Assembly: GCA_010015805.1 (NCBI GenBank)
Contig: ML978121.1
Location: forward strand, 124,001 to 188,000
Reading direction: 5' to 3'
Origin: Rhizodiscina lignyota
Taxonomy: Eukaryota
DNA: 64,000 nt
Shown: positions 1-38,219 of the stretch, piece by piece
Layout: each line of letters starts with the position of its first letter
Position numbering within the stretch: position 1 is the stretch's first letter
Made by a program: the position numbers and the translations under genes
The notes under the pieces: model-generated
Told to the model about the DNA's origin: nothing
What the model saw: only the letters and a program-made list of their open reading frames with translations
Database searches by the model: none

Positions 1-121
1 CCATCGGGGGAAGAGACGGAGCGATGAGAGTTGGCACAGCGAGCAGTCTCAGCAGTGGCAGGAGGATTATAGAACAGGAACGTTGCAGGATCAGACGAAC
101 CAGATACAGTCATTCCAGAGG

Positions 122-9544: not shown

Positions 9545-9551
9545 CTGCTAG

Positions 9552-10133: not shown

Positions 10134-10290
10134 CAAGTGGGTGACAAAAAAGTTGGCCGCAGCTTTCGGGACAGTGAACAGCATTGGTGTATAGCCACTG
10201 TGAATAACACAAGGTACAGGTTTGTAAATGGCCTGTAATTGTTTAGTGTACTCCGGAGAATATATAACTGAGCTTCCAGAGATACTCTCA
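10134..10290 (-). mobile_element. MITE family A, degenerate partial copy in reverse orientation
   Basis: Starts with CAAGTGGGTGACAAAAAAGTTG (matches the family terminus). GAGCTTCCAGAGATACTCTC matches the reverse complement of GAGAGCGTCTCTGAAAGCTC in the 12.8-kb copy. Confidence 0.6.
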
Positions 10291-11196: not shown

Positions 11197-12732
11197 ATGC
11201 TGTCTTCAAGGCGTTCTCTCATTTTGCTTTTAAGCATCATTAGCTTTGCAGTTGCTAGCAGCAGTATCGATTTGAGTGGGCTACTCCCTCAGCTCTCTCC
11301 ACATGCTTCCGTCACCGATGGATCCAACCTGGCTGCACAGCGATGGACTGAATTCGACTCTCCGACTCCTGGCGCGACTGTAAATGTTGCGACTGAGCAG
11401 GATGTTCTCGTGACGGTAATGGCCGCAACTTTGAATGACGAGTTATACACTGACTTCTCACGTGTTAAGGTCCAATACTGCATTAGAGAGAACATCGAAT
11501 TCCTCTCACAGAATGGGGGACATGGGTGGTCAACTACGATCCATTTGAAACAGAACGGGATTATCATCAATCTAGGAGCTCTCAACGATGTTACTTTCAA
11601 CAAGGCCAAAACCGAAGTCACCGTTCTCGGTGGCGCTCTGGTGTCTGACGTTGTTGCTGCTCAGTTTGCAAATCAAGCCATTGTTGCCACCGGGACTTGC
11701 AATTGCGTTGGCGCTCTCGGATCCGCACTTGGCGGCGGACTCGGAAATCTTCAAGGAAAACTCGGACTCATCTCGGACAGCATAATTTCCCTCAACGTTG
11801 TCACTGCCTCAGGAAAATCCATAACTGTTACCGAAAAGGACTTTGATCTCTGGTGGGCTCTTCGTGGGTCTGCGGCAAACTTCGCCATAGTTACGTCGGT
11901 AATTATGCGATCTCATCCAGTCGAGGCAGCTGGGTTAACTGCTTGGACGGGTCCTCTGATCTTTGCGGAGAACAAGCTGGAAGAACTGGTTCAAGCAGTA
12001 GATGAGCTCTTTTTGAAGCCAGAAATGAGCGTATCTCTAGTATTTGTCTCATCCGGGCCCCCAAACAATACAGCCCAGGTCATCGCCAGCGTCTTCTTCT
12101 ACGGCACAGAAGAAGAGGGAAGGCAAGCATTTGCGCCCCTGTACAAAATCGGTCCCCTTGTAGATGGTACAACTATTCAGCCGGTTACACGTTGGAATGA
12201 CGCCAACAACTCAACTTGCGTTAAAGGAGAACGGAAGCAAACATTTGGCGCAGGTCTCGCGCGCATGGTGCCTGCCACATGGCGTGAAATATACAAGGAG
12301 TTCCAGTCATTTATTCAACTTTCTGGGTCGGCCAACAGCTCTGTCGTGGTCAATGCAGATTCACTAGTCGAGCTCCGCCAGATTCCAGAAGGAAGCTCTT
12401 CTTTTCCATTCCGTAATACAATCAATTTCCATGCCTTCACGGTGGCTTGGTATGCGGATCCAGCCCTCGACCATCGAGCTACAGCGTATGGCTCCAACGT
12501 GCGTGATCTATGGCGTTCAACATCGGGACTAAAAGAGAATAGCACGTCAGTTACCGTATGAAGAGCCATCAAGACCCGAACATGCTAACGTAGAGTCAGA
12601 TACATAAACAACGCTTACGGAGATGAAGCCCTGGAGGTGGTCTACGGGCACAATCTTGAGAGACTGAAAGCTCTGAAGCGGCAGTTCGACCCTTATGGGC
12701 GATTCACTCAGTGGTTCTCTTTAGCTGATTAA
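11197..12732 (+). CDS. Secreted FAD-linked oxidoreductase (berberine-bridge / VAO family)
   Basis: Signal peptide; QNGGHG FAD-His motif and GTCNCVG. In-frame 54-nt intron 11416-11469 and a second intron about 12546-12599 lead to the BBE tail YINNAYGDE...YGHNLERLKALKRQFDP; stop TAA at 12730-12732. Confidence 0.9.
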
Positions 12733-12930
12733 CTGAGCGGCTGTAGTAACAACGAGTTTTGTTCTTCAGCATGAACGAGAGCGTCTCTGAAAGCTCGATT
12801 AAGTATAGACCGGACAGTATGTATCCCAAACACAGCTTCAGTGTGTACAATCTGGATTAACTTACGAGGATATGTATCCTCACGATTCAATATATTGCAG
12901 CCACGACTCAACCTTTTTGGCACCCACTTG
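12733..12930 (+). mobile_element. MITE family A, copy lacking an intact left terminus
   Basis: Colinear similarity to 9600-9785; right end GACTCAACCTTTTTGGCACCCACTTG. The left boundary is approximate. Confidence 0.7.
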
Positions 12931-13120
12931 CTTGATTCTAGCCAGGACATGAATCGGGGCAGCAATACATAGATTTGTATATTATGTCACATGTCCATCG
13001 AACGTACACAGATAATAAAACACTGTTCTGCGAATCCTCCAAATTCTCAGGAGCAACTGATTGATGCGACCGTTCAGTTGCTCATCTGCCTGACTGGCCC
13101 TTCCGCGGACGAGCTGAGAT

Positions 13121-13831
13121 TCACTGGTCCTGCTCTCCAGTCTCACCATGCAAGCCACTCGGAGAAACGTCCTCGATCTTATGAGAGTATTTCTCAGGAT
13201 GTGCCTCTCTGTCCGCTTCATGCGCATCATTGCTGTCCGCCTCGCCCAGAAAAGCTGCGTTCTTCGCGTCCTGCGGGTCGATGTCATGCCTGTGCTTTTC
13301 CGGGTTCTCGTTGAAGTCCTGTTCAAAGGCATCATCGCTGTCTGCTTCTCCTAGGAATGCTGCATTTTTGGCGTCAAGGGGAACTTGTTTTCGACCCTCT
13401 ATGTCTTTTTCAACTTCGAAGGCGTCGTTGCTGTCTCCTTCGCCCAAGAATGCAGCATTCTTGCTGTCCATGGCCTCATGGCGGTCGGCAAGAGCATCGC
13501 GGAAAGCCTCATGCCCATCGTTGGAGTCGGCCTCGCCCAGGAAAGCAGCGTACTTTGCATCTTCTTCGGGGGCCTGGTTTTGACCGGATGGAGATGCAGA
13601 CTGGGCAATCGAGTTGACCACGGGATTGCTGGAATCAGCTGGAGGAGATTGGGTAGTGCCAGGCTGAAATAGAGCAGGTCCTGGGTGGAAGAATCTCTGG
13701 TTGAGGACACTCTGCTTGTTCAGAGAATATGCCGTGATGATCGCGGCTGGGCCGGCCTTTGTTGGTAGAGCCGAGAGCGCTGGCCTGGCAGCAGAAGAGA
13801 GTGCCAGTGAGAATGCTCGAAAGGACGCCAT
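13121..13831 (-). CDS. Protein with a mitochondrial-type presequence and four acidic repeats (D[AS]K[NY]AAFLGE[AG]DS[ND]D)
   Basis: 236-aa intronless ORF. N-terminus is Ser/Ala/Arg-rich and lacks acidic residues (…QRFFH…); four near-identical repeats follow. Confidence 0.8.
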   Translation of the reverse strand: MASFRAFSLALSSAARPALSALPTKAGPAAIITAYSLNKQSVLNQRFFHPGPALFQPGTTQSPPADSSNPVVNSIAQSASPSGQNQAPEEDAKYAAFLGEADSNDGHEAFRDALADRHEAMDSKNAAFLGEGDSNDAFEVEKDIEGRKQVPLDAKNAAFLGEADSDDAFEQDFNENPEKHRHDIDPQDAKNAAFLGEADSNDAHEADREAHPEKYSHKIEDVSPSGLHGETGEQDQ

Positions 13832-15360
13832 TATGTCAATTGAAATTTCATAGCCTGGTGTCTCGAAGTTGAAGAAACGTCCAATTTACCTTTCTCGACA
13901 CCATCTCGATCATACTGAGGGGGTTGCTACCCCACATGACGCTTTGCATTCCCATTTTGGCGATACGGAGGTACATCCGCTGAGTAACAGTCGATCATTG
14001 TATTTGCATGTGATGCGCTTCGAACGCGTGTATAAAATTGGGAAAGGGATCAACTTGGACATTTCCAGCATCCAATGGACAGAATGTGGGAGTCCGACAG
14101 TGTCACCGTCGGCTCTGCGTGCCAATAAGTTGGCAATTGTAGATGAATTCTGTCGCTCTAATTAATGGTAAGTACGGTGTCATCGTATTTCGTCTAAGAT
14201 TAATAAATGTCTCTGTAGTATAGAGTGATTTCGATGGACGAGGCTCGTGGCAATCCAGTGCCTTCGTGAGCGGACTGTCTCCCTGACGAATCACGTCTGG
14301 ATGCCGCAGAAACCTGAAAACTCTTTCGACGGCGCCTTGTAGCGCTAAAGATGATTCCATCTATGCCAAAGGTCAAGGTCGATTTTCAATAGACAAAATG
14401 GAAGAAAGTCTTCTCGAAGAAGGCTGGGACATGGTGATAACGCGGCGATGAGATCCGAAGAACGATCGGAGCAGAAAAGAAGTTCTACCATTCGTATCCA
14501 TTGCCGCTAAACCCAATTCGGGCCACGTCAGTCCACAAGATAGGAGTATCGCCAGGATACAACAGACGTTGCCGCTCTCCCGTGCTCCATCAACCTTCAT
14601 TCTCACAATCGCATCACTTACAATGAGCCTGAGCGCCATGGAGTTCTGGAAACGCTGCAGCAGAACGCGTCAGTCCATGCAACGCGTTGGTCGTTGAAAC
14701 ATCGCTTCGCCCAGTCTACTCCGTAGGAAGTATGTACTCCGTACACTCGTGCGGCATCGGAAATATCAATCCAACGTCGTCGATCGTGATTGGCCGAAGA
14801 TTTGCGGCGTTTGGAATGTGGCGCACGTTGAAATGATACCCGTTTGGGAATAGCACGAGAGTCTGCGTCTTCACAGCTGGACCAGCAGCTATGGATACAC
14901 AAACCACATGCGCTATACCGAGAGCAGTTGCATTCCTCCACGCCGCGCGCTAAACATGTGTGTTTAAAATGCACAATACGAAGGCTGTCGCAAGCAAGAT
15001 TCCCATCCTTCCCTTTAGCGGCTCTACTTGCGAGAAGCAACCTCTGACGATGAGTGATTTCCACACGTATGGTGCGAAAGATAAATACACACCTATCGCC
15101 ACGTCCATTTAATGAGGCAGCTACTGCCTGAGGTAGGATCGGCGTTGTGCTTAAATGCTCTCAACTCCGTCCGTTGGAACCCAAATATTTGACGTGTAGG
15201 AGGCTACAAACAGATTGCTCCAATTCTCATCTTTTCTTCAGCTTCCACAGCTGAAAATCGTCTTGAATACCTTCAACATTCCTTCTTGTCGTTAAATTAT
15301 AATAGTCGCCTTTCAATTGCTCTCGTGAGCCTTGCGCCGTTCTCCCTTCCAGAGAAAATC

Positions 15361-17371
15361 ATGTATCTCGCCTACAAATACGCCAAGAAGAAATCAAGGG
15401 AGCGAAAGGAAGCGAAAGCAGCAGAGGCTGCCAAATCACCTTCGACAGATGCGCAACCACATGGCCAACAGGATGCGGTAGTGAGCGACGAAATCGAGGC
15501 TGCAGCACCCTCAAAAGTCCACGCAGCTGGAACAAACGACGAAAAGACAAAGCAGCCATCCCCTGGAGACCATGAGATGAGTGAAGAAGACCGCATCCAG
15601 AAGAAGAAAAGAAGAAACTATCGGCTTAAAATCATATTTGGCCTCGCCGCACCCTTTGCCCTTCAAGCCCTCGACACTACCATAGTAGCATCAGCTCTGC
15701 CATTCATTGCGAAAGACTTTGGTACGAAGACCTGTACTTCTATATTCTCAAACATGATTGCTAATCCTATCCACAGGCGAAGTCAAGCAACTCAATTGGA
15801 TCATCTCCGCCTTCAATCTCACCTCGGCCGCCTTTCTCCCATTCTGGGCCCAAATCGCCGACATATTCGGACGCCTCACTACCATTCTCGCATCCATCGT
15901 GGTGGTACTGATCGGCTCGGCTATCTGTACCGGGGCGCCTACTTCAGACTTTGGAGTTCTGCTACTCGGTCGTGGCATTCAGGGAGTTGGCACCGCAGGC
16001 GTTAGCATATGCGTCCGTATCATCCTCGCCGACAAAGTCAGTCTCAAGGAATATGCCCTCCAATGGACTCTTTTCAGCTTGGTCTCTGCTGTCGCCTTTA
16101 CTATTGGCCCTGTCATTGGTGGATATTTAACTGAGGCGACTTGGCGCTGGGTCTTTGCGATAAATCTACCAGTCGCCGCTTTTGCCATTGTGGTAGTACT
16201 ACTTGTCCTGCGCAAAGACTTGTTGGGCCCGCAACCACTACCTCAGATCGAAGGCCGCGATGTATCCACTCGGCACGGACGCTTCCTCCTGCGAATCATG
16301 ACCATTGATTACGGTGGTCAGCTCCTGTTTCTTTGGGGACTTGGACTATTGATCCTCGCGTTGACCTGGGCGGGCGGCTCGTTCGCATGGGACTCGGCAC
16401 ACGTGCTCAGTCCGCTGGTCGTTGGAGCCATACTATCCGTTATCTGGCTATTGTATGAGTTCATGATGGCCCCTCCGCGCTTCATGTCCCGCGTCTTCCC
16501 TATTCAACGCGCCATGATACCATGGGAACTGCTCTCACAACGCGATATTGGCCTGCTATTCCTCATTAACTTTGGCTCCGGAATGGCCATGTTTGCATTA
16601 CTATATTTCATGGATCTCTACTTTGCTCTTGTAGAGGGCAAAAGCGCCAGCCAAGGAGGAATTGCATTGCTCTATTTCCTACCGGGTCTCGGAGGTATGT
16701 TTATCCAAACGCTCGCAAAAGACGAGATATGGTGCTGACTGCGTCTCTTTTCAACAGTGGGTAGCTACATGGCCATGTTCTTCACCAACGTCTGGCCACG
16801 GCAAACGCAGCCGGCACTTCTCTTTGGTAGTTTGACGTCAGCAATTGGTATAACGGTTCTGATATGGGCTATCAACGTTGGCAAGGACAGTGTTATATAC
16901 GGTATGATGGCGCTGACGGGTCACGGTATCGGTATGCGTATGGTCCCCGGATCACTACATGGTCTCGGCTACTTCCCGGCCCTGACGGCTGCCATCTCAT
17001 TTCTCAGCTCATTCGCCTTGCCCTTTGGCGGCACCGTGTCCCTCACACTCATGAGTACCGTTTTCAACAACGAATCTGGCGCGCAGCACACCGACCCCAG
17101 GCGCGGCATTCGATTTGCCTTCATTGCGCTGACTCCGTTCATGTGGGTGTGCGTCGTGCTCTCGGCATTACTCGGCAACGTATGGATCCAGAAGCATGGC
17201 GCGCACGAGGTCGTCAACGGGGTATATCTCTGGAGTCTGCTCACTAGGAAGAAGCTGGTCAGGGAGCGAAGAATGAGAGGGGAAGTTGGTGGTGGCAATG
17301 ATGGTGCCATAGGGGAGCGTGCGGCGGGAGTGGCGGACGAGGAGAATCAAGCAAAGGCAGATGCTGCATAA
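15361..17371 (+). CDS. MFS drug/H+ antiporter (DHA2-type, 14 TM)
   Basis: Exons about 15361-15721, 15776-16694, 16758-17371; motifs ALDTTIVASALP, ADIFGR, GRGIQGVG, IGPVIGGYL..WRWVFAINLP. Confidence 0.92.
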
Positions 17372-19890: not shown

Positions 19891-20614
19891 TCAGTTCTTG
19901 CTCTCAGCTGCGACGCAGAATTTCTTGTGATGCTTCCAGTCTCCCTTCTGACAGTCCTTTCCACAGTAGGCCGCCCTCTTGCACTTGATGCAGACAAGTA
20001 GCTTCTCCTTGACCTCGGTGCACTTCCAGCATCTTGGCTCGTAGCTCAACTCGGTAGTACTCGCGCCGGTTCTCGGTGCACGAGGTCCTGGTGCTCTCAT
20101 TGGCTCGAATATGCCTCCGACGTTGATCAAGATGGAGCCACTACTATCAGAGTGTGAGCTAAGAAAGTTGTGGTGATCGGAGTACATACGCTTCACTCTC
20201 ACGCATTGCGTCCGAGTTCGGATCGTTCACAACATCGCCCACGCCGGGACATTGAAGGTCCCATGGCGTACCGTCGTTCCGATATGAGTCCAGGCCACTC
20301 TTGAACTGCTTCTTGCTCTGCGGGAACAACTCAGTGTCGTTGTACATTCCACGCAAGACGTTCATATACTTGGCATTGATTTTTGCGCCCAGCATCATTG
20401 CCAAAGCTCCGAGAAGGACAATGGAATACTTCTGAAGCGGCTTGTCGGCCAAGTAGCGATCAAACGTTTTGGCAAGGACACCTTTATCCAGAGTGCGGCG
20501 CACTTTGGCTGGATTCTCTGGGTGAAGGAGATCCACTCCGGCCACCTCACTGAGCTGGTCGGCGTGATCGAGGTCCGGGTCAGACTGAAAGAGACCGTAA
20601 CCCCAGGCACCCAT
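19891..20614 (-). CDS. MYND zinc-finger protein with DUF4259-like N-terminus
   Basis: Starts MGAWGYGLFQSD; one intron about 20131-20189; C-terminal CWKC...CIKCKRAAYCGKDCQKGDWKHHKKFC. Confidence 0.85.
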
Positions 20615-21659
20615 GGTGAAATGCTTGGTGAATCTTGGGGTGATTGAGATATTGAGGGAGATCTGAGATGAAAATAAGAGGAAGTGTTCGAAAACCCTTA
20701 CGACTGTTGGAAGACCGAGGTGAGGACTGGAGAGAGACGGGAACCTTGATCAAGGCAGCAGCAGCCGGTGTGACGTGATGTTTTCGAGTGGAGGAAGGCA
20801 CGCGCTGAAGTTGCGCCTTCCCGATGCGCGAAACCACCAAAACGCAAAGCTCCGCAGTGATGGGCCGGAAACATGAGATGGAAAGCATAAGGAGGTAAAT
20901 AGAGATTTCTCATGCGTGCATCATGTTTATAAACGCATTTCATACTGCGAAGAAACCATATTAGTGCTTGCAAGTGTTGTATCTGGGGCCCGTGCGTATG
21001 GTGTTGCCGCGGCGCTTGGAGTTTGTATTCAATTCGCGTATTTTCTAGTACTCACTCACGGGAAATGGTCATTTAGTGCAGTGGCTATGCGAGAGCACTA
21101 TGAAGACCGCTGCACTCAGGGAGTTACTAACCTTGATACAGGTCCATTCAACGAACAGCTCGGAGAGAAGCTACATAAGGAGCTTGCTTCTGTGCTCACA
21201 AGCCCTCTTCGTAACTAGTATGCGTTAAAGGAACTAGCAATGCCGTGAGTTCGCGTCTTTTTTGCACTCCTGTTCAAATCCCAGACCTTTTTTTCCATAT
21301 ATCTTCGTGGACGAGCAGTTTCGCTCTTGTCGATGCTCTGCAAATCTCAAGCAACGCATGGATGTCTCGATGACACTGACACTGCTTTCGAGCCTTTTTT
21401 TGCATTTATAGACTTAACTAAAGCGCAAAAACATCACACTCCGACCCTCTGCTCGCGTTTAGATACAAACAGGAACATCGGCTACGTACAAAACCATACT
21501 TTCGTTTTTACAACCTGGGCCGTCCTTTACGATTTCTTCATTTCTGCCGCATAGTCACGAGTGCACGACTTGTGATGGGATTGTGTCGCTTGAATCTCGG
21601 TAGCTCAGTATCTATGGGTGCATACTCTGGTTAACGGATCTCTTTCAGGCCGATGCATC

Positions 21660-22364
21660 TCAGCAACTTCCAAATCCAACCATGTTCAACGTGTTGATCT
21701 CCTCTGTCGGATCGCCTTTCATAAACACGTCGCCGCAATGGACAGTGTGATTATAGATCCTCAGATACCCCTCCAAGTTTCGTCCAGACTCGATAAACCG
21801 ATGCATCTTCCGCCAGGTATACGCACAATGCGTAGCGTGCTCCCTCTGGGTTGTCCAAAACGGATCGCGATACTCCAGGTTTTGCAGCTCGGACTCTGGA
21901 ATCTCCGCTGTACCCTCCTTGTCCGCCCAATACGTCCATGGCCCTTCAGCGCGGAAAGCGTTCAGCAGCTCCAAGTCCTGACATTCGCGCGGGAGCCATC
22001 CCGGAGCCAGAACATCGAAGACGCAGCCTCGTTCCTTGGCTTCTGCTACCGTACTTCCGCAGAAGTAAGTGTCGACGGCGTGGGACTCGTATATGGCTTT
22101 GTCCAGGTGCGGAGGAGCTGGTCGTTGTCCCACTCGCTGTGCAAGCTGCAAGTGTGTAATCCAACCCGCTGAGTAGCTGCAAATGGCAATCATGATGGCG
22201 ACGCAGCTGGCACCTACAGCTACGAGCCACTTTCTTCTAGTACCTTTCTTGAACTCTGAATAGATCCGGTGTGATGAAGGATCCGCAAGGGTGTCTTCGT
22301 ATAATGGAGGTGTTGAATCCTCTGTCTGTGGAACAGCATTGTATCCTTTCTTTGTCGATGACAT
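21660..22364 (-). CDS. Divergent double-HXXHC type II membrane protein (UstYa/DUF3328-like oxidase)
   Basis: 234 aa from ATG 22364, intronless; one N-terminal TM segment (WLVAVGASCVAIMIAICSY). Contains CGSTVAEAKERGCVFD..W.P..C and two HXXHC motifs, HATHC and HTVHC. Confidence 0.8.
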   Translation of the reverse strand: MSSTKKGYNAVPQTEDSTPPLYEDTLADPSSHRIYSEFKKGTRRKWLVAVGASCVAIMIAICSYSAGWITHLQLAQRVGQRPAPPHLDKAIYESHAVDTYFCGSTVAEAKERGCVFDVLAPGWLPRECQDLELLNAFRAEGPWTYWADKEGTAEIPESELQNLEYRDPFWTTQREHATHCAYTWRKMHRFIESGRNLEGYLRIYNHTVHCGDVFMKGDPTEEINTLNMVGFGSC

Positions 22365-22900
22365 CTTGAGTCTGAACGAATATTGTCTTTGGGCTTCAGT
22401 GCCGCAAGTATAGGATTTAGAAGAGGTGGTTTGGAGTGGTACCCAGGAGTTAGAATGCAGATACTGATACCCAAAGAAGGTGCCCAGCTCTCGCAAGAGA
22501 TACGGTGATCGTACGACAAACACCGTCTGATTAGGAACCTCAAACTCCTTTTAGAAAGACGGTTGATAATGAGACGTGATATTGAAACATTGCTCCCTCC
22601 GTGCCTATGACTGCATGCCCTTCGTTGATCACCTCGCATAACATACCTTCTGCGGTGATCTTGCGGCCGGCGGCCGGGTTAGAACTTGCCAGGGCACTTT
22701 CCCGCTCTGCAGTCAGCTTATTTCATTCATTGTCTTTGTTGTTTAACCGTGAGACATGATATCTTTGCGAAGATCATGGTATACTCCGCAACACAGGATT
22801 GAGAAACACGCTAATGCCAGCATGGGTTCTGCTGTAGTAGTGAGTTTAGCGGTGAAGGCCAAACTTATGGAATAATGCTCCAGAGCTGAGAGCCGCTGAA

Positions 22901-22908
22901 TATATAAA
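22901..22908 (+). promoter_or_regulatory. TATA box of the small peptide gene
   Basis: TATATAAA about 110 bp upstream of ATG 23013, in the 650-bp divergent intergenic region. Confidence 0.55.
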
Positions 22909-23012
22909 GCAATGTACCATGCCAAGCGAGATATCACGGACAAGTCGCAAGAGCCAGATTCCTCCAGCTTGTTACAGACACAGCATCCTCCTTTGCTCAA
23001 AAACCTTTGAAA

Positions 23013-23211
23013 ATGAAGTCCTTCATTGCTCTCTTCGTCGTTCTTCTCGGCGCGTCATTTGTTATGGCCAACCCTATCCCAAACCCAACCCCTGAAGACC
23101 TCGAGGTGAGTTCCCTAACCACAGTACACAATTTCCCTCTGAAGTTTAATCTCTGCATAGGAGGATATCCAGCAGCAGTGGTTCATCAAGAAGTACGGTG
23201 ACAAGGCATAG
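23013..23211 (+). CDS. Small secreted peptide, putative RiPP precursor (47 aa: MKSFIALFVVLLGASFVMA-NPIPNPTPEDLE-EDIQQQWFIKKYGDKA)
   Basis: Exon 1 23013-23105, phase-0 intron 23106-23160 (GTGAGT...CATAG), exon 2 23161-23211 ending in TAG. Clear signal peptide and acidic ED leader; lies among three HXXHC genes. The CDS is well supported; the precursor role is inferred. Confidence 0.75.
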
Positions 23212-23826
23212 ACGGGTTAGATATCCTCAAAGCTTGTCGTTTTACTCCCCCTCTGATGGAGACATACAGCTTTCAGAGGATATCATCAGGGCAGCATCAA
23301 AGGACAAAAGGCATTTCAAGCGTTAGATGACATTGACGCTCATTGGTGTGGTCTCAACGCCTGCCTAGGGTTGCGGAGGTTGCTGTATGTAGCATTTAAT
23401 GCGAAGCCAATCGTAGGCGCGGTCCGTGAAAAGAATTATCCGATCTGCGTAACTTCTCAGTGTGAAGGTGACAATGTAGTACGAGTGTTGAAATAGGAAG
23501 TGCCGATACGAATTACCTGAATGGACTTAATCCCAGAAGATAGAACCAATCATTCTGTCAAAGCTTTCGGTGCAACAGGTTTTGTGCTCGAAAGCACTAT
23601 GGTGCACACCAGCGTCACCATGCAAGTACTCTCTTCGATTCGGTTATTGGTATTTGCACGCTGGCTTAACCAGCGGTACTGGTAGCTTAGAAAGGGTAAT
23701 GAAGGAGGAGGTCGAAGTTCCGAGGGCTAACCAAATTAGGTGAGAGAGCTTACATGGTGCGTGACAGCCTTCTCGAGCGAAGTACCTGTCGCGCGAAAGC
23801 TACAGTACCACACTCTGCATATATTC

Positions 23827-24768
23827 TCATGTACAATGTTGTTCCACTATTGGATCCGTTTCATGCATATAAGATGCTCTTTGGGTCCACATTTTACGAT
23901 GCCTTCGGAATATGTGAATCGAGCAGATCAAAAGTGATCCTGCAAGCACTGCAAGTGCCCAATTGGCGGTAACAGCGAGCCCTGGACTTGGTGTAGCATG
24001 GACATCATGACTTGAACTGGGCGCGACTGCCTGGGTGAGCGTTGTTTCGGAAATGCCCCAGGGTCTGTATGGGCGAGATATCTGGGGGATAGTCGCCAGC
24101 TCTTGGTCCAGACTCGACTCCGCTGAAGCCCTCAGGTTCGCTTGGAGCGTGCCGTGAAAGTTGTGGGCCTCAATTCTGGCACTATCATCGAAGGAGCCCC
24201 CGAAATTCTGATCGGAATTGATAGCCCAGAGGATGGGCTGACTGTCAGACTCTGTATCGACAGTTTGAGGAGAAAAGTCGAGCAAGGCCCACGTGCTGCA
24301 GTTGTAACAGACCAGCTGAACTTCCAACACTTTAGCCGGAGCGGTGACGGATGCCTCATCGTCGAAATCGGAAAACTTTGCGCTCAGTATGTCGATCCGC
24401 GGAATCGAAAAGTAGCCCAAGGCAAACTTTGCCGAGGGATCCACCAGCGCATGCCCCATACCTGCACGTACAACTGTGGTAGCAATTTGAGAATGAGAAT
24501 ACGGGTCTCCGAAAATGACGAACATAAGCGATCCATGCATCTGAGGGCCGAGGCCGATACCGATCCAGCCTGCGGAGGAAGCGTTCAGGCGCTCTGTGAT
24601 GATCGTCGTGTATAGATCAACTGACGGAAATGCTGTTGTGTAATTCTTGAAGGTTGAAATTGCAAGGCAGAATGCATAATTTGCTGCTACATCTTCTTTG
24701 CAAAACTGCAATGGTTTCGAAAAGGCGGTAACGGTGAAGCAAAGGATCCATAGTAACCGAATCAACAT
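23827..24768 (-). CDS. Secreted/membrane-anchored cellobiose-dehydrogenase-type cytochrome (DOMON, heme b) domain protein
   Basis: Signal peptide from ATG 24768. GWIGIGLGPQMHGSLMFV (candidate Met heme ligand), CYNCSTW, QPILWA, IEAHNFHG (candidate His ligand); C-terminal hydrophobic segment WALAVLAGSLLICSIHIF followed by RRHRK. Confidence 0.82.
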   Translation of the reverse strand: MLIRLLWILCFTVTAFSKPLQFCKEDVAANYAFCLAISTFKNYTTAFPSVDLYTTIITERLNASSAGWIGIGLGPQMHGSLMFVIFGDPYSHSQIATTVVRAGMGHALVDPSAKFALGYFSIPRIDILSAKFSDFDDEASVTAPAKVLEVQLVCYNCSTWALLDFSPQTVDTESDSQPILWAINSDQNFGGSFDDSARIEAHNFHGTLQANLRASAESSLDQELATIPQISRPYRPWGISETTLTQAVAPSSSHDVHATPSPGLAVTANWALAVLAGSLLICSIHIFRRHRKMWTQRASYMHETDPIVEQHCT

Positions 24769-24986
24769 TTGGGGCAATGACGTGAAAAGGGAAGTGATAC
24801 AAACCGGCTTCAGGGAAATATGCTTAAATACGAAGCTCAGCTCGCCGACCTTGAAGATTAGTCACTAAAGTAAGACGACATACATAAGCGGCCCCTGGCT
24901 GCCTGGCATGGGTCGTTCCCCAGGTTCCCGATACGGTTATAGGTCATCTTCAGGATTCCGCAGCTACAGAAGACATGGGAAGCTAT

Positions 24987-26022
24987 CTACGGATGCAACT
25001 CGGTCACAATGTGATCTAAAGTCCAGGCATGGATGTCCCAGAAGTTCCGGCATTTGTGCATTGTCTTGAAATCCATGTGCGAGCCCCAATCCTCCTCTAC
25101 AGTATGAACCAGTACTGGCGTTACGTCCGCCGTGCACATCAGGTTCAGTCTTAGCGTATCAATACAATGATCTATTGGAGTACAGGAAGTCAGTAATCCA
25201 GACAGATCGAGCAGACATGGGACATACCCAAATGGTCGTGGAAGCCCTTTACGTGCTCTGGCTCAAACGTATCCTTATAGTAGCCAAAATAGTCAAAGAA
25301 CTCTTCCCGATAGATTCCAAGGCGAATATAATACTGTACACCGACATTGGGTCAGTAATACTTTTGTGTGCTTCCGAGGAAATAGCAAATACCCACAAGA
25401 CAATGCAACTGATGAAATACCTCCACTGCGCCTACAAGCTCATCGGGTCTGTCTTCTGCTACAGGCCTCCAACTTGCATTTGCTGCGATCCCTGGGGGAT
25501 TTTCTGGTTTACCGAGAGCAGCAAGTTTGTCTCGAGGAACTGAGATGCCGATGACTCCCATTTCACAATCAGCACCGGGAGAAACATTAAGATCTTTGAG
25601 ACTCACGAGCACCAGTTAGATGTCTCCACGCTGCTTCCGTCTCGTTGGTTGGTGGCCCTCTGTAGGGAGATGGATGTCCAAAATCGCCAGGAATATTGGA
25701 AGAGGAGTAACGAATAATATCGGCATCAAGAAGTGGAGCTGTGAAGTTGGTTAGCAAGAAGTTTGAAGTATCGTGAATATGTCGTACACCAAGGCGAAAG
25801 CTTGCGGGAGCATTCTTCATCTGTTGGTTGCGCTTGTTGTACCCATATGAGTCTCCACGATGAGGCTAGAAGCAACAGAAGTTGCAAGCCATAAACAGCA
25901 CAAGTCCACCTTGATGGCAGCGGCGACGCAAATATGCTCCATAAGGGCCTCCGCGATCTACTCGCGATTGAAAAGTCCGCGAGCCTGAGTTTCTCGCTCT
26001 GTACTTTGATGAAGCTCGCCAT
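24987..26022 (-). CDS. DUF3328 / UstYa-family oxidase (paralogue A, 5 exons)
   Basis: Manually spliced: TM segment, SPWSPLLDA, SPYRGPPTNETEAAW, VEVFHQLHCL, YYIRL, HLDHCIDTLRLNLMCTADVTP, DFKTMHKCRNFWDI; stop TAG at 24987-24989. Confidence 0.92.
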
Positions 26023-26432
26023 CAGGCTTGGCTGGGTTGAGAAGGTCCCATGTATCGGACTTTGCGAAGATGAGTGGAATTGAATTTTGGGTTGAATTTC
26101 GCTTGATGTCTGGGGTGATTTTAGCGCGGCCTTTTCTTCCGCAAACAAACAGAAAGGCAGGGTTCAGTCAGTTCGAAAGCATCGCCCTTCTTACTTGGAT
26201 CCGTCCTTACGTGAGACGCTTATCCACCTCGGAAGACTACCTGTTAGAAAGTACACAACGATCTAGCGATAGCGATGATGGCGGTTAGGATGTGGAGAAA
26301 TTTGGAATCCTTAGATGCAGGTGCGGACATGCGGACTGCAGAGAGATTTAAAATCTTCCTAAGCAGGGAATTGTGCCATTCTGGTCCGGGCCGCTTAATC
26401 GACATTGAAAGAGGGAATTTCCGTCACGCAAA

Positions 26433-27421
26433 CTACCTGATAGCGATATGATTGAACACCCATTCGCGGATATCCCAGAAGTTTCTGCATGTGTGTTTCG
26501 TATCGAAGTCTGGAGTCACTCCGCCCCAAGCTTCGGCATCATTGATTAACAGCACAGGTGTGACATCAGAGACGCACATCAGGTTGATCCTGATGATCTC
26601 GACGCAGTGATCTGTACTTCTGTCTTAGTCGTGCACCGGACCGGTTGGAGATAGCTGATGAACTTACCAAGATGCATTTTCTTCATTTTCTCGTCAAGCT
26701 CTGGCTCTTCCTGTATTGGCCACTCGTGAAAGCGTTCGAAGTACTCATCCCGGTAAAAGTGGAGTCTCAGAGTGCTCTAGATCAGCTCATCAGCGATTCA
26801 AATGGGGCCAAGAAAGGACATGAAACTTGCAAGGCAGTGGAGTTGGTGGAACATTTCAGTCAGTCCCGCAACTGAGTCCGGTCTTGATTCGGTGGGGGCT
26901 TCTCTCCAGTCGCCCTCTCTTGACTTATTCAAAAGGTCTAGCTTGTTTCGGGGAATGGCAATTGAAGGGTCTAAGGAAACGTGTTAGTCTTCAAGGTGCT
27001 ATGTTGGTAGAACAAGACCATACTGTCCCAAATGTCCTTCCAAGCGGCCTCCGTCTCTGGAGTTGGAGGCCCACTCCATTTTGAATCCGCGGGGAACGGA
27101 TTGGAGATGACGGCGCTTTCGTATTTGATGATTCCGGAGTCGATGATCGGGGCTATATCTGTTAAAACTGTATAAACTGAGGACACTGCACAACGTACAG
27201 TACGGTGATAATTGTCTTGCGCATTGTGTGTCCGTTGGCTGGTGGAGAAAAGAGATGAGGAGTAGTAGTAGTGATATCGACAGTAGGCCACTTTGCGATG
27301 TCCAGAACGGCCAGTATGCCCATCGAGAATTCGTAGCGTTTGATATCTCCCCGCTCAAGAAGCCAGTATTTTCAGGCACTTCCTCAAGGTCATCGCGGGC
27401 GGTGTCCGATGATGAGTTCAT
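26433..27421 (-). CDS. DUF3328 / UstYa-family oxidase (paralogue B, 5 exons, one GC-AG intron)
   Basis: Manually spliced: TM segment, SPYSPIIDS, WSGPPTPETEAAW, EMFHQLHCL, STLRL, HLDHCVEIIRINLMCVSDVTP, DFDTKHTCRNFWDIREW; stop TAG at 26433-26435. Confidence 0.92.
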
Positions 27422-29035: not shown

Positions 29036-30808
29036 TTATCCCCCCTGTCTTATCACTCGTACTTGATCATTATCATTCCCACTGTCACTCCGACAATCAT
29101 CAACCTGGCAAAAGCAGCTTTGGGCCACCCACTTCATAGCTCTCTCCACTTTGCATTGCCAACATCTGTCGCCTTGTTTCACACTCACGCTAATTCTCCC
29201 AATAGTGACCTCGCGGCCAGGTGAGGCTCGCGCTTCAGGGAGCACGTGAGGGCAGCGATGCCGGTGGCTGTGTTCAAACAAATTTTGCTCACGGTGAGCT
29301 TGGCCATGCTCAGGAGCACCATCTAGTGAATGTTGTTCTGTATGATAACTGCTCCGGTGCCGCCGAAAGGAGCCAGGATGTTCAGATGCGTTCTGAGGTT
29401 GGAGCTGAATCGGCTGAACGATGCCTGCTCGCTCTGCAAGTGGGAGAAGGATGGGCAATGCAGCTGAAGTGATCCTAGTAACTTGCATACCTGGTTGCTC
29501 TTCACCTGCCTCCCAGTGGACATGGCGGCCCTGGGGTCTTGTGTCGTTGTACTCTGCTGTCCTGAATACCATTCTTGATGCCTCTGTGTTGGCCTCGATT
29601 GGGCTCGTCTCATTCGATACATTTCCCAGAGATTCTGCTATCGCGGTATCTGCTGTAAACTCCTCTCCTTCCGTGACACTTAATGATCCCCTAGGGATTG
29701 GATATGTGTCGTTTTGCGTCGCCGGTCGCGCCACAGGGGCATTGTATAACGGGTGATTACTACCCTCGAAGCTGAACGTCCCTTGGCCACTTCTTGGAGG
29801 CTGCCAATATGCCCTCCCAACCCGAGGCGGTACTGTTGCTGTACGCCGAGGTTGGTTGGCAAGCGCCGGCAGGAATGGGCCATCGTTCGGATCATAAAAG
29901 AAGCCTCGTACTGCGCGGCCAAGACGCCTCGCCGAGGACTCGTCCTCGAAGACTATATGCAGATCTCCCGCACTCGCGCGGCGTGAGGAATATCGATGGC
30001 TTCCTGCGGATCGCAAGTTTGTGAGGCTGAAGCGCCTCGGTGAGGCCTGCTGTTGCACTTCAGCGGGCGTAAGGTCGCCAGGCCATCGTGGCTTTCCCGG
30101 AGGAGTTTTCAATCGTTCATAGGGCGGATAACTGGGTTTCAATGGCTGGCCGTATGCCTTTCCTTTGTTAAAGTCTGAGTAGATTGTTGATTCCGAGCCA
30201 TTTGCCTCGCTTCCATCTTGGAATATCTTGCGAAACTCTCGTATAGCCGCTTCGTCAAGGCTGAGTGATATCCGATGTCTACCAGCATCTACGGGCGGCT
30301 TGGTCGTGTGGACATAATTTGAACTTGCATCAACATGGACAGGAGTGAATCGCCTCTTTGCCGAAATGTCCGATATCTGGCGCCGGAGCGACAAGGAGGA
30401 CCTTTGTTCGATGATGGTCGTCAAAGGTGTACCATCCGGTCGATTATTGAATCGAACCTCCACGAGTGCCACATTGTTCGGCGCACGCGGACGACCTGGA
30501 GGTGGATCCACTGGAGGCACAGCCCTCTTCCTCTTCCGGCCCCAGCCCCGCCCCTGTCTCCGCCCAGCTTCATTCTCTCCGACTATGGCTCTTTTGTCGT
30601 CTTCATCGACGGATCGGCAAACTGAGGCGTCGTACACCGAGCTCTGGTCACTGCTTGGGGTGGCTTCGGAAGAACTTATTTTGGGATATAGTGTATATCG
30701 CCCGAACGGCCTTTGTTTCAAGTCGGCATCTTGCTGAGATGTAGATGCCTCGGGCGGACTACGAGAATTGCTTCGATCGTTGAGCTGTGCTATCTTATTT
30801 TGAGGCAT
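29036..30808 (-). CDS. Hypothetical disordered R/S/P-rich protein with a Cys-rich C-terminus
   Basis: About 590-aa ORF from first ATG 30808; motifs PLTTIIEQRS and CWQCK...SCFC. No recognisable domain. Confidence 0.65.
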   Translation of the reverse strand: MPQNKIAQLNDRSNSRSPPEASTSQQDADLKQRPFGRYTLYPKISSSEATPSSDQSSVYDASVCRSVDEDDKRAIVGENEAGRRQGRGWGRKRKRAVPPVDPPPGRPRAPNNVALVEVRFNNRPDGTPLTTIIEQRSSLSLRRQISDISAKRRFTPVHVDASSNYVHTTKPPVDAGRHRISLSLDEAAIREFRKIFQDGSEANGSESTIYSDFNKGKAYGQPLKPSYPPYERLKTPPGKPRWPGDLTPAEVQQQASPRRFSLTNLRSAGSHRYSSRRASAGDLHIVFEDESSARRLGRAVRGFFYDPNDGPFLPALANQPRRTATVPPRVGRAYWQPPRSGQGTFSFEGSNHPLYNAPVARPATQNDTYPIPRGSLSVTEGEEFTADTAIAESLGNVSNETSPIEANTEASRMVFRTAEYNDTRPQGRHVHWEAGEEQPGMQVTRITSAALPILLPLAERAGIVQPIQLQPQNASEHPGSFRRHRSSYHTEQHSLDGAPEHGQAHREQNLFEHSHRHRCPHVLPEARASPGREVTIGRISVSVKQGDRCWQCKVERAMKWVAQSCFCQVDDCRSDSGNDNDQVRVIRQGG

Positions 30809-32267
30809 TTGTGACGAAGGAGATGTACGCAATGAGCATGGAAGAGTGTGAGGAAAAGCGAATATAGAGAAGTGTACAATGAAGCAAGAATGACACTTAG
30901 CTCGTGTGTCGTCTTTGCTTCGGGTAGCTGCGATGAAGTTGTTCTCGAAGCGACTTGTCCATTACGCTATTACGTATCGCACTTGCTCTTAACAGCACCC
31001 ATCAATTAACCTGTGCTGCAGCAGATTAGTCCTTAAGGTTAGTTTAATAGTGCTTCAGAGAGCATTCATCCCGCTAAGCCTCACCAGAACCAGAACGTGG
31101 ACCTTAATAAGGATAAATCTCTCAAGAACTCTCGAGGACGTCAAGGAAGAAGTCTAGAGTCCCAAAGAGGAATGTGTTTCTGGAGAGGCTGCAATCCCAA
31201 CGGTAAGGCGTATCATGCAGGTCGATCAGGCCGCCAGTACGGTCGACGCCACCTGAAGAGTTGCCAGGAAACAGTCGGACTGGCCGTTGCTTCGGAGAGT
31301 TGATGTCCTAGCAAGCGTCCTAGTTGCTCTGGTGTTACATTTAGAGCTGGTAGTCGGAAATAACGAAGGACGTGCAGGATTGGAATTGCACCGAGCACAA
31401 TAGCCGCCGCCTCATGGAACAAGGCGCAGAGACAGAGAGAGGGTTGTGGCGGCGGTAGGCTCTCCAAGGCTTCACCTCGCAATCGTTCCTCGTGAGACGT
31501 AGTTATGTTCCGAGCAATTGGCCTCCTCGTCAGTTCGTCACAGTGCGAGAGTCGAGGGTTTTCTATTTCGAGGGAGCGTGGGCGGCCAAAGCGGGCAGAT
31601 CTCCAAAGCTTGCGCCACCGCCATGAAACATCACCACCGAGTCGGAAGAACCGGGCATAAGCCAGCATCCGCATCACTCTCTCCTCTAATTTCAATTGCT
31701 CCATGATGGAATCCCAACTAACCGCATTTCTACATTCGGTACAGCAACCGCTTGCCATGAGGCGTCGAAACAACCCAGATCGAGTTGGCCTCGTTCGATC
31801 GGCGTGTAAGTTTCGAGAAACGCTCTGCCAAGTGCCAGATGCAAAGGATCTGCATGGCTGGAGGACAGTGCCCCGTTCGGGTCGAAAGCAAGGCCATGAG
31901 GCATCACAGCCTCGCTCAGGATCGTCTCCTTTGTGTTCCTGGCTTGGAGTCTACCACGTCTAGAGGGAAGGGAACAAGCTGCGAGCATGTGGGCCGCCGA
32001 CCTTCGCTGACGCCTCATATACGGCCGCCGAGTACTTTATGTGGAGTGATCCGCAAACTGGGTCCGATTCGGTCATTGACGATTTCTTTGCATGGACTTC
32101 ATTTATTCCACTTTCTTGTTGTACATACGACATTCCTTCCTTTCCCAGTTCATTCGCTCTTCCCACGGTAACGGCTCTTTAACTCGCAGCCTCAGCGCTC
32201 CGAGGGACCTTCTCCGCATATCGTGAATTTCAGCTCTTAATGCGAGGATAAAGGAAATACCATCAAC

Positions 32268-35329: not shown

Positions 35330-36934
35330 TCAAGGGAACACCTTGAACCCTCCCGGCAAAGCTGATTGAAAGAATCCGTTCAGATCATACTTCTTGCTCA
35401 CAGCCTGCAGCCTCGCCTTCTCCGCCTTCCCGTAGCTCGCAATCGGGTCCTGTGACCTGTCCGCATAGTTGAGATACTGGTACGGAATGTAAAGGCCTTT
35501 CTGGCGACACAAATCTTCCTGCTTGACGACGATATCTTCCATCCCCTTCTGCACGGTATCGTCGTCTGCTGCGTTTGCGTACGCTGCCGTGAGCACAGTG
35601 ACGACGAAGTCCGTCTCTCCGGCGGGCAGTCCGAGCGAGCTCTTTCCGGTTGAGACGGGCTGTGGCTGGATGAGCAGGACGAGTTGCAGGTTCTCAATGT
35701 GCGCCAGAGCCTCTGTACCGTCTTCCCAGATCTTGAAGAGGTCGGAGTAGAAGTCGGCGTCTCCATTTCGGAAGGAGAACACAAGGTCGATCGCGCTACA
35801 TGATATAATGAGTCGCGGTCCATGTCTTGACTCGTAATTCCAACGGCACTTACCGTGAAGCACCAGGAGGCAATGATCCACTCGCTTCGGTCACAAGAGA
35901 TGTCACATTCGTCAGGCGCAGAGTGTTTGCGATGGACGGAATAGCTGTAAAAGGCCTGTAGATCGGAGGATTCACGACCGGCTTGATGTAATAAAGGTCA
36001 CCGCCGACTGCATATACTTGCCCGGGGTTCTGGAAGACGAGCGCCATACCCATATCCGCCGAATCGTCGAAATTCTTGGGGTCCATGAAGCTGCTGAAAG
36101 CTTTGGCGTTCGCCGCTAGGATCTCGGGCGTATAGTTGAACGCAAGGCCGCCACCCCACATACCTTCAATCTCCCAAGTGGGAGCTTCAATTCTCGTTAC
36201 GATTCCATAGTTGTTTGAGCCGCCTTTGAGTGCAAGCCATAGATCTGGATAAGAGCGTTCGTTGACCTCAAGGATCTGTCCGGTGGCGTCGACAAGCTGA
36301 TAATTGTAGATATTCTCACAAGCCCAGCCCTGTCGCCTGGAGAGGTAGGAGATTCCACCTGCACTCGTCAGTCTCTTGAGACGGAAATTCACAGCAGATT
36401 CAAGATACCTCCAGTCGAGAACCCTCCCACTCCAATTCCCGGGACCCTTCCTCCCATGACAGTGAGATTGTACTTGTCGAGCACCGGGTAAATCTCACTC
36501 CAGATCCCGCCACTTCCAAGTGAGACTATCTTCCTGTCCTCGCTGAGCTGTAAGGAGTTCATCGAGCCCATATCGACGGTGATGCCACCTTGGATGTTCG
36601 CTGCCCCTGTCCAGATCATGTGTCCGCCGCTCCTGAGTGCGAATTGCGGACCACGATACGAGCCGTAGCCATGACCAGGATTTATCAACTTGATGAATCG
36701 GGAGACATCTTCAGCACAGGTGGGAGAGAAAACGCATCCGGGATGCAATTGGCGCTCCTGGCCAGAGTAATAGGAAGAGATGGAGTCGTTGTAAGTCGAA
36801 CTACCAGGATACGAGACATGGCCAACTTTTGACGCCAGGAGCTTGCAATATGAAGCTATATCTACAACGCTAGTGGCCGAAGTGGCTAAAACGAACGACG
36901 CGATGAGAAAGGGAACAGAGTGTGAACTCAACAT
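35330..36934 (-). CDS. Secreted FAD-binding oxidoreductase (FAD_binding_4 / VAO family)
   Basis: Signal peptide; FALRSGGH, GGRVPGIGVGG, DLWLALKGGSNNYGIVT, YLNYADRSQDPI..LQAVSKKYD; introns near 36360-36408 and 35790-35854. Confidence 0.9.
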
Positions 36935-38219
36935 GGTGAATCTGAAAAGTCACCTCGTCACCACCGAGGAGCAGGAGGCTACAAAAGTTAAAGAAAGGAT
37001 CCTGCCGCATCTTGAAGTACGTACGAGGCCCGCATGACTCGTCCAATGGCCAGGAACACGGGATTGACGTTGGCCAGCTCGCCAAAACTAAGCAGTTAGA
37101 TTGCGGAGCAGCCATGGGGTTGTTGGTGAGTCCCCAGTTAATCGCAGAGGTTCCCCATAATTGGGATGTAACCTGAGGCTCCTCTGGGTGCTTCCACCAA
37201 TGATATCGTGCGGGGATTGAGCCTCCAAGTACGCGAGCTACCTTAAGGTCGTATAGGGCCGTTTATGGTTCCTGGCGCTGGCAATAGTGAAATAGAAGAG
37301 GGTGCTTTGCAGTTTTCCATGTCAAAAGTAGAGCCAGTGATCGCTGCTGTTGGGATCGTCTCCGGCTTCACCACATCGAGTCGTATCTTGCGTTGAGGGA
37401 CCTCGGTTCGAGCGTGACGAAAAAGCTAGCCATAGCTTTCAAGACACTGAACAGCTCAGGAGTGTAGCTTTTGTTACCAATTAAACATGCAACGTTTCAA
37501 CGGTGTGCAATTGCAATATACGCTGCAAAGAACCTAAAACCAAACTTTCGCTCTTAGCTGGAAGAGACCTTTGGTACTTGCTGGACAAAATTTTCTATGC
37601 CTTGTCTTCCTGCATGACTAGTGCATCGAGCGCCCGCAAATAATCAAATCGAATCTCGACCATTAGGCAGAAGCTGTGGACTGGGTGACTGTGTTGAGTC
37701 GAGGCGAAGCTTCGTCCACGTGTACAAGTTGCAAGTTGAGCTCCTGCAAAAAATCGAATCGAAGCTCGAACTCGAAACCAAAGCCGGAAGTTGAATAGTT
37801 ACTAAAAGGACATAGCCAAGCTCGGCGCGTAATACGAGCTCGCTAGAGGTGAGGTATTGAAGCGTACGATGAAGATGAGGCATCGATTCGTATCAGGTTG
37901 CGTGGAAGGGAAATATTGTTGATCATCAGCCACAGTCAAAGCCTCAGGCAACCTGTTCACGTGCTTTGATATTGAGATGTGTGGCTGTGCACAGAAAATT
38001 CTCGTCATCGATTGGTGAGTCACTCCTGTCCACGAGCGAACATCGGACGGATGACTCTCACAACAGGATGGTGTGACTTGTCGTTCCAGTCACGAAAGAA
38101 AACCGTAAGTATAAGTAGCCTATCAGTCCTATTCCGTCCTTCTATTCTCTCTTATTTCTACATGGGCGAAGAGAAAGCATTCTTCTACCCTTCCCTCGTC
38201 TTTCTCCTTCGGCGTTACA

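Follow-up and report, generated by a model that had tools for sequence, protein, structure and literature searches.

A five-gene cluster of Rhizodiscina lignyota with three HxxHC proteins, a candidate single-core precursor and a cytochrome

We describe a group of five genes (g1 to g5) in a stretch of 64,000 nucleotides from Rhizodiscina lignyota (GenBank assembly GCA_010015805.1, contig ML978121.1, positions 124,001 to 188,000 of the forward strand). This whole stretch is called the window, and coordinates are counted from its first letter. The genes occupy positions 21660-27421 (5.8 kb). The explanation which we favour, at somewhat better than even chances, is that they form a minimal DUF3328-type (dikaritin-like) cluster for a peptide made by the ribosome and modified after translation (RiPP), in which g2 would be the substrate, g1, g4 and g5 the oxidising enzymes and g3 the reductant. 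The RiPP reading is well grounded, because the family of g1 co-clusters in other fungi with UstYa genes and Kex2-type precursors, two of them with WIK(K/R) cores. Three features depart from the clusters which have been described: a single-core precursor without KR, a third oxidase which belongs to an unannotated HxxHC family, and a cytochrome encoded in the cluster. The locus has the look of a pared-down production line for a modified peptide, and it offers a hint of how such oxidases may be supplied with electrons.

Organization of the cluster

The window has 52% G+C and its introns are of the GT-AG type. A preliminary description of this DNA, made from the sequence alone, had proposed five genes in 5.8 kb with short spacers; measured again on the gene models, the spacers from g1 to g5 are 648, 615, 218 and 410 bp. 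It had also described a compact set of secretory-pathway genes, a tiny gene with a signal peptide, a DOMON-type cytochrome and the absence of other tailoring genes. All this agrees with our results: the gene models have a putative signal peptide or a transmembrane (TM) helix, the tiny gene has 47 codons and a canonical intron of 55 nt (its ATG is at 23013, while about 23014 had been implied), g3 is a cytochrome, and in the 5.8 kb Pfam detects no tyrosinase, methyltransferase, peptidase or transporter domain. The elements of the cluster are as follows.

21660..22364, reverse strand: g1, a single exon of 234 amino acids; type II membrane protein of an ascomycete family without Pfam model
22365..23012: divergent intergenic region between g1 and g2, 648 bp, a putative promoter; TATATAAAG lies about 110 bp upstream of the g2 ATG
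23013..23105, forward strand: g2 exon 1; a putative signal peptide followed by NPIPNPTP, a run of four X-Pro dipeptides, and the beginning of an acidic pro-region
23106..23160, forward strand: g2 intron, 55 nt; GTGAGT donor, CTAAC branch-site consensus, TAG acceptor
23161..23211, forward strand: g2 exon 2; acidic residues, a single putative core QQQWFIKKYG, a tail of four residues and the stop codon
23827..24768, reverse strand: g3, 313 amino acids; DOMON-like cytochrome b of the CDH type, bearing a signal peptide and, at the C terminus, a single TM helix
24987..26022, reverse strand: g4, UstYa/DUF3328 protein of 271 amino acids in 5 exons (26022-25788, 25738-25607, 25554-25397, 25333-25228, 25171-24987)
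26433..27421, reverse strand: g5, UstYa/DUF3328 paralogue of g4, 259 amino acids in 5 exons (27421-27199, 27152-27024, 26970-26831, 26776-26668, 26611-26433), with a GC-AG intron after the third

The HxxHC proteins

The exons of g4 and g5 match the PF11807 profile colinearly in positions 44-220, with the exception of the variable fourth exon. The best exon has E 5.6e-13 in g4 and 3.6e-13 in g5. Both proteins have a TM helix and the motifs HQLHC and HLDHC; their spliced frames are open and their intron positions are common. The third intron of g5 (26831-26776) can be read only as GC-AG, with a GCAAGT donor; the g4 intron at the same codon is GT-AG. As judged from their sequence, g4 and g5 are UstYa/DUF3328 paralogues with the double HXXHC by which the enzymes of dikaritin and KEP clusters are recognised. 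Against longer proteins, the last g5 exon gave no match in a word-index search.

The preliminary description had counted three HXXHC oxidases of the DUF3328 group and had proposed a check with PF11807. The paired motifs are indeed present in g1, g4 and g5, and the profile recognises g4 and g5; the third member has to be placed elsewhere, since g1 has no match in Pfam at E≤0.1. Its single TM helix follows a short N-terminal tail, and the motifs HATHC and HTVHC lie in the C-terminal domain. The motif residues are H176/H179/C180 and H206/H209/C210, in the arrangement HxxHC(x26)HxxHC.

The relatives of g1 are numerous: among 1.84 billion representative proteins HMMER detects 1771 at E≤1e-3 and 965 at E≤1e-10. 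We have looked up the ten best. They are mostly metagenomic, one is from Xylogone, and every named row is a "hypothetical protein". A word-index protein search gave one relative. The closest relative (P0002/P0152) has 64% identity and is found on contigs of 1.2 and 3.4 kb, outside the loci studied below. An alignment of 42 members of the family shows no variation at C102, G103, C114, C128, H179, C180, H206 and C210, and very little at H176, H209 and C234. Only one of the 42 matches PF11807, with E 0.0027, and neither hhalign nor hmmsearch aligns the family with g4 or g5 beyond the HxxHC stretch. We have therefore rejected the assignment of g1 to PF11807/UstYa, given the absence of a Pfam match, the single relative at E 0.0027 and an hhalign probability of 3%. 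In a protein-language-model atlas g1 is found among unnamed ascomycete clusters (0.95-0.96); a cluster with 28% of UstYa appears at only 0.85. By sequence comparison g1 is a member of a separate, large ascomycete family which has no Pfam model.

The AlphaFold2 model of g1, built from the 42-sequence alignment, has a predicted local distance difference test (pLDDT) above 93 in residues 100-234. The predicted lumenal domain is mixed alpha/beta: the first motif opens a helix (173-193) and the second one lies inside another helix (204-216). Foldseek finds no match of this model in the PDB at E≤0.001. A homodimer prediction, run without the 42-sequence alignment, scored 0.58, with 0.10 for the best of three controls; the contacts agree at a level of at least 100% between runs and the pLDDT of the partner is at least 91. 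In the calibration of this mark it was reached by 21 of 30 solved one-chain pairs and by none of 23 solved single chains; in eukaryotes by 17 of 29 pairs and none of 30 single chains. The predicted interface is formed by residues 174-192 and 202-220, which are the two HxxHC helices of each copy. In prediction only, g1 thus fits the DUF3328 "superfamily" as Huang et al. 2025 use the term: an N-terminal TM helix, a C-terminal lumenal domain, and a homodimer whose interface is made by the two helices that bear HxxHC(x)nHxxHC. We regard g1 as a protein which may work like a DUF3328 enzyme because these three predicted features match those of the cyclochlorotine hydroxylase CctR.

Related loci in other fungi

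We have scanned metagenome contigs of the Joint Genome Institute with a ten-sequence alignment (g1 and its closest relatives) and obtained 52 loci. They are grouped by blastn (at least 88% identity in at least 300 bp) into 39 lineages, 19 of them with at least 10 kb and 20 shorter. UstYa-like genes were searched by tblastn with g4, g5 and five UstYa open reading frames (ORFs) from the loci confirmed by Pfam; the Pfam check covered ORFs of at least 110 amino acids in nine loci.

A UstYa-like gene is found in the locus in 15 of the 39 lineages (9 of the long and 6 of the shorter ones). In all 15 the nearest match is at most 4 kb away from a g1-like gene. Wherever the UstYa-like ORFs were checked PF11807 was confirmed, in five lineages out of five (L001, L013, L015, L019 and L042). 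In the available part of Umemura 2020, 9399 DUF3328 genes are counted in 1461 fungal strains, a handful per genome; with so few genes per genome the pairing is far above chance.

Kex2-type repeat precursors, clear or probable, appear in seven of the 19 long lineages, and six of these seven also have a UstYa gene. The precursors are:

L019/L020: a leader and a repeat with FPEWIKKR at its end, in nine copies
L015: EEAINWIKR in four copies
L031: DPIFARVDKR in about 17 copies, spaced by EAEA
L042: a repeat with VTFVPKDYKR at its end, in eight copies
L041: a repeat with GSVVSVYKR at its end, in five copies
L028 and L038: probable cases

Some of the loci also hold transporters of the major facilitator superfamily (MFS) or the ATP-binding cassette (ABC) type, Zn2Cys6 regulators, peptidase M3 and P450s. 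As UstYa genes and repeat precursors recur beside g1-like genes, we consider the g1 family a regular member of DUF3328-type RiPP clusters. In the literature which we searched there is no description of the family in such clusters.

We have also built a tree with 40 g1-like domains. Genes of the family often come in twos or threes in the same locus (L001-L004, L005, L038), and the copies belong to different clades, which suggests a division of labour among paralogues.

The candidate precursor

The gene g2 has 47 codons in two exons. It is located between g1 and g3 and has a hydrophobic leader, as seen by inspection and with a crude signal-peptide filter. The splicing at 23105/23161 is deduced from consensus signals and is thus a probable one. 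The same filter finds 28 signal-like ORFs of at least 40 amino acids in the 64 kb, about 0.4 per kb by chance, so that the leader by itself says little about g2. Its (X-Pro)4 run is more distinctive, and the arrangement of the genes goes beyond chance. Among the 28 signal-like ORFs g2 is the only one which has such a run after the leader, and it is found in 4 of the 706 ORFs of at least 40 amino acids starting with ATG in the window. Runs of X-Pro dipeptides are the substrate pattern of Ste13-type dipeptidyl aminopeptidases. Pairs of X-Pro or X-Ala after the leader also open the precursors of L015 and L041. The putative core of g2 (WFIKKY) resembles the WIK(K/R) cores of the repeat precursors in L019 and L015, and the order F..K..Y is also found in the core of L042.

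Small genes or ORFs next to UstYa-like genes were noticed in two other loci. In L035 (7350-7760, reverse strand) a tiny gene lies between the UstYa-like and the g1-like genes. It combines a leader with an acidic stretch in which X-Pro pairs occur. Read by eye, it contains three consecutive short introns with consensus donors and CTAAC-type branch sites; its micro-exons would give about 44 residues, and the tail (SYFN-K-acidic) is rich in aromatic residues. This gene could be a further non-repeat precursor of the build seen in g2. In L013, a locus with two or three UstYa genes, one g1-like gene and no repeat precursor, an ORF of 39 codons with a leader (8166-8285, forward strand) comes right after a UstYa gene. 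The small signal-like ORFs of L013 and L048 are too uncertain to be counted as single-core precursors.

The cytochrome

The protein g3 matches PF16010 (CDH-cyt, the cytochrome of cellobiose dehydrogenase) with E 2.2e-10 and 41 bits, above the curated cut-off of 27. Its listed structure neighbours in the atlas are clusters which bear CDH-cyt, with template-modelling scores of 0.46-0.54 by query. By profile and fold g3 is a CDH-type cytochrome b. In the first listed neighbour 73% of the members also carry cytochrome b561; another neighbour is a cluster of 723 members named "iron reductase domain protein". The AlphaFold2 model of g3, from an alignment of three sequences, has a pLDDT of 37 and is too poor for use. 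A sequence search in the PDB gave no match, and a word-index protein search returned only the protein of the window itself. Neither a PF03188 match nor more than one TM helix after the cytochrome domain is found in g3, so that it lacks the multi-helix b561 domain of a CYBDOM protein; we have also looked for a b561-like remnant in the window and found none.

A related cytochrome is found in one other lineage. The locus L042 (7919-9220, reverse strand), with near-identical copies in L008, L010 and L052, encodes a fusion of 434 amino acids: CDH-cyt (PF16010, E 3.5e-11) is followed by cytochrome b561 (PF03188, E 5.4e-6). Its domains make this fusion a trans-membrane carrier of electrons of the CYBDOM type. 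Its gene and a g1-like gene diverge from each other across 526 bp; further on come a UstYa gene (1.9 kb beyond) and the eight-copy precursor (3.8 kb beyond). The locus also contains an ABC transporter fragment. Up to and including the first TM helix g3 and the fusion have 32% identity. Met77 and His202 of g3 are invariant in the three-sequence alignment with the L042 and L052 fusions and may correspond to the axial Met/His haem ligands of CDH. The g1-like gene of L042 is in another clade than g1, so the association with a cytochrome is not simply inherited with one subfamily.

In 433 kb of loci there is no further cytochrome-like match beyond the lineage of L008, L010, L042 and L052: a single independent recurrence in 39 lineages is suggestive only. 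If a genome is taken to have 5 to 20 CDH-cyt genes, the chance of one such adjacency among about 55 g1-like genes is estimated at roughly 0.03 to 0.1. The presence of the fusion beside the same set of genes suggests that the copper enzymes are supplied with electrons by the cytochrome. The mechanistic fit of a cytochrome as donor to DUF3328-type enzymes is good. Copper lytic polysaccharide monooxygenases (LPMOs) are known to receive electrons from the cytochrome domain of CDH. CctR requires an input of electrons; an accessory electron-transfer protein in the lumen of the organelle was hypothesised, not identified, in that study (PMC12435403). Our literature search gave no paper which joins DUF3328 with DOMON or with b561. 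The accessible supplementary text of Umemura 2020 contains none of the terms CDH-cyt, Cytochrom_B561, DOMON, WIKKR or WIKR.

Proposed mechanism and its alternatives

If the five genes work together, signal peptidase would cut g2 after its hydrophobic leader and a Ste13-type dipeptidyl aminopeptidase would trim the four X-Pro dipeptides. The acidic spacer would present one aromatic/basic core (around WFIKKY) to g1, g4 and g5. These would be membrane-anchored enzymes facing the lumen, each with HxxHC...HxxHC; by analogy with CctR, ApnU and AprY they may form dimers, through disulfides or a helix bundle, that hold a binuclear copper site. With O2 and two electrons they would cross-link or hydroxylate side chains of the core, or oxidise them in some other way. 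A protease of the host, whose gene is not part of the cluster, would take off the KK pair and the short tail of g2. The cytochrome g3 would share the membrane of these enzymes, its haem domain facing the lumen, and would hand electrons one by one to the Cu(II) sites, in the way that the CDH cytochrome serves copper LPMOs.

A wider proposal is more tentative, and we hold it as a possibility only. Cluster-encoded haem-b cytochromes of the DOMON type (here an anchored CDH-cyt, elsewhere a CDH-cyt/b561 fusion able to move electrons across the membrane) might be the donors, missing so far, from which binuclear copper oxygenases of the DUF3328 type physiologically obtain electrons in the secretory lumen. 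The g1 family would then be a further class of such copper enzymes, acting on ribosomal peptides which can have a single, non-repeated core.

A number of observations weigh against a RiPP pathway made of these five genes. The comparison by hhalign of the g1 family with g4 and g5 covers just 15 columns around the first motif, with the probability of 3% already mentioned. In the tree the g1-like genes of L015 and L019 share a clade with good support (96/95); g1 itself lies elsewhere, nearest to L003, L005 and L006. No UstYa gene is found in 10 of the 19 long lineages, so that the pairing with the g1 family is frequent, not obligate, and 12 of the 19 have no detectable repeat precursor. The gene g2 has a single core, with KK instead of KR and no KR site. 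WFIKK is encoded once in the window, and nowhere in the 64 kb is there a tandem repeat able to encode a repeat precursor; the screen for such precursors gave no repeat ORF near the cluster. A homologue of g2 is absent from the 52 loci as searched by tblastn, and the likeness of its core to those of other precursors is short and was noticed post hoc. The cytochrome g3 lacks the b561 domain which would carry electrons across the membrane, and a cytochrome gene is present in the locus in only one of the 39 other lineages. Finally, DUF3328 enzymes also tailor non-ribosomal peptides such as cyclochlorotine (PMC12435403).

The best tblastn matches of g2 were in L045 (E 0.005) and in L016 (E 0.19). 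Both have been rejected as homologues: the former has no ORF with a leader and the latter is the start of a larger secreted protein.

The term dikaritin-like, used in the preliminary description, thus has to be qualified. It is justified by the co-clustering of the g1 family with UstYa genes and Kex2-type precursors, and it does not extend to g2, which has neither repeats nor KR. Dikaritins and KEPs are defined by a repeated core flanked by KR; this is not the case in g2, and for this reason we count the cluster as a variant and not as a member.

The main alternative is that the HxxHC enzymes and the cytochrome cooperate on a substrate made elsewhere, which could be a distant repeat precursor, a non-ribosomal peptide or another metabolite; g2 would be a bystander, an unrelated small secreted peptide, or no gene at all. 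We consider it rather doubtful, although it accounts for several facts: the action of DUF3328 enzymes on cyclochlorotine, the 12 long lineages with no detectable repeat precursor, the failure to detect g2 in the 52 loci and the ease with which a signal-like ORF arises by chance. A paper on lichen RiPPs also considers, in its available sections, that a precursor outside such clusters is possible (PMC12048977). A substrate made by a neighbouring scaffold enzyme finds no counterpart in the window: among ORFs of at least 100 amino acids in the rest of the 64 kb Pfam detects no non-ribosomal peptide synthetase, polyketide synthase, tyrosinase, methyltransferase or peptidase domain, nor any other scaffold-enzyme domain. 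The properties of g2 also argue for a true precursor, as it lies between genes of the cluster, has consensus intron signals and is the only one among 28 signal-like ORFs with an (X-Pro)4 run; its aromatic/basic core is like those of the repeat precursors in related clusters.

Two other explanations appear improbable. The five genes could be neighbours by chance or by descent, g4 and g5 resulting from a tandem duplication, with no common pathway. The short spacers (218-648 bp) speak for a functional group, as do the pairing of the g1 family with UstYa genes in 15 of 39 lineages, always within 4 kb, and the recurrence of the cytochrome once, in a different g1 clade. Slightly less probable still is a module for copper/iron redox or homeostasis in the secretory pathway or at the cell surface, made of a haem-b "iron reductase domain" protein and copper-binding HxxHC proteins, with no natural product. 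The cluster of 723 proteins of that name is a structure neighbour of g3, and HxxHC...HxxHC of CctR binds two copper ions (PMC12435403); CYBDOM proteins, in the accessible part of the literature, act as ferric reductases in plants. Against such a module, the characterised UstYa/DUF3328 proteins are biosynthetic oxidases, the g1 family adjoins UstYa genes and repeat precursors, and only one of 39 other lineages has a cytochrome beside these genes.

Implications

The chemistry of DUF3328/UstYa proteins, which the preliminary description had called metallo-oxidases in general terms, is now known to depend on copper and O2 and to need electrons (PMC12435403, published in 2025). A cytochrome gene at 218 bp from a UstYa gene, together with the b561 fusion in an unrelated lineage, is a concrete candidate for the electron donor which has been postulated. 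There is also a consequence for genome mining. The search for fungal RiPPs relies on PF11807 and on repeated cores flanked by KR: the g1 family, with some 1800 representatives, would be missed, and single-core precursors likewise. In the available sections of the paper on lichen RiPPs (PMC12048977) the possibility of a single core is raised only as speculation. With its five genes the locus is a convenient minimal system for reconstitution.

Neighbourhood of the cluster

We have examined two ORFs on each side of the cluster. Their Pfam matches are weak and under the curated cut-offs, or correspond to a MYND finger. The nearest features are:

Left side: a MYND-finger gene (19894-20749) and a DnaJ-C28 gene
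Right side: an ORF of 641 amino acids (29039-30961) with no Pfam match, and a glutaminase A gene

An MFS transporter gene is found 4.3 kb to the left of the cluster, past the MYND-finger and DnaJ-C28 genes. Within 13 kb (4343-17368) there are a SnoaL-like gene, a secreted FAD_binding_4 (BBE-type) oxidase and an MFS transporter, which may be a separate small-molecule cluster. A second FAD_binding_4 gene is found at 35333-37262. The window starts with an open frame of 1344 codons (2-4033, forward strand), which leaves it at the left end and has no Pfam match even at E≤0.1.

Comparison with known systems

The asperipin-2a cluster of Aspergillus flavus has a precursor (AprA), a DUF3328 cyclase (AprY), a reductase and a transporter. 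It resembles our cluster by its very small size; in it a DUF3328 protein alone makes the macrocycles on a precursor with a signal peptide. AprA has Kex2-processed repeats, whereas g2 has one core and no KR; the window has instead three HxxHC proteins, one of them from another family, a cytochrome and no transporter in the cluster. A single DUF3328 protein suffices for asperipin-2a, according to the available text of Umemura 2020, and AprY is reported to be copper- and O2-dependent and dimeric, as cited in PMC12435403.

The epichloecyclin cluster gigA-gigB-gigC-kexB of Epichloe festucae is also compact, with four genes and a DUF3328 cyclase, as described in the accessible part of PMC10540207. 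In the cores given there, INFKIPYT and IGFKLPYR, Phe comes before Lys and Lys before Tyr, as in WFIKKY. It differs by the repeats of GigA, a SET-domain lysine methyltransferase and its own kexin; neither a cytochrome nor a protein of the g1 family is reported in that part of the paper. Ustiloxin and phomopsin, the dikaritins, share with our cluster the presence of UstYa-family proteins with double HXXHC next to a precursor with a signal peptide, for which g2 is the candidate here, as far as the available sources go. They have repeat precursors, tyrosinase, methyltransferase, peptidases and transporters, unlike the 5.8 kb of the window.

CctR combines an N-terminal TM helix with a lumenal domain; its HxxHC(x)nHxxHC motif sits on a four-helix bundle where the two copies of the dimer meet, and binds two coppers (PMC12435403). 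In prediction g1 reproduces the TM helix, the lumenal domain and the position of the motif helices at a homodimer interface, and g4 and g5 share the Pfam family of the DUF3328 group. The substrate of CctR, however, is a non-ribosomal peptide, and g1 is not detectably homologous to CctR by sequence; the lumenal domain of g1 is predicted as mixed alpha/beta, whereas CctR is all-helical.

The closest parallel for the cytochrome is found in the CDH cytochrome with its LPMO partner and in the CYBDOM proteins. In both cases a haem-b domain of the DOMON type would face a copper oxygenase: g3 belongs to PF16010 and the L042 protein is a true CDH-cyt/b561 fusion. Unlike these systems, g3 has neither a flavin dehydrogenase nor a b561 domain, and the acceptor which we propose would be a DUF3328-type enzyme inside the secretory pathway instead of an LPMO.

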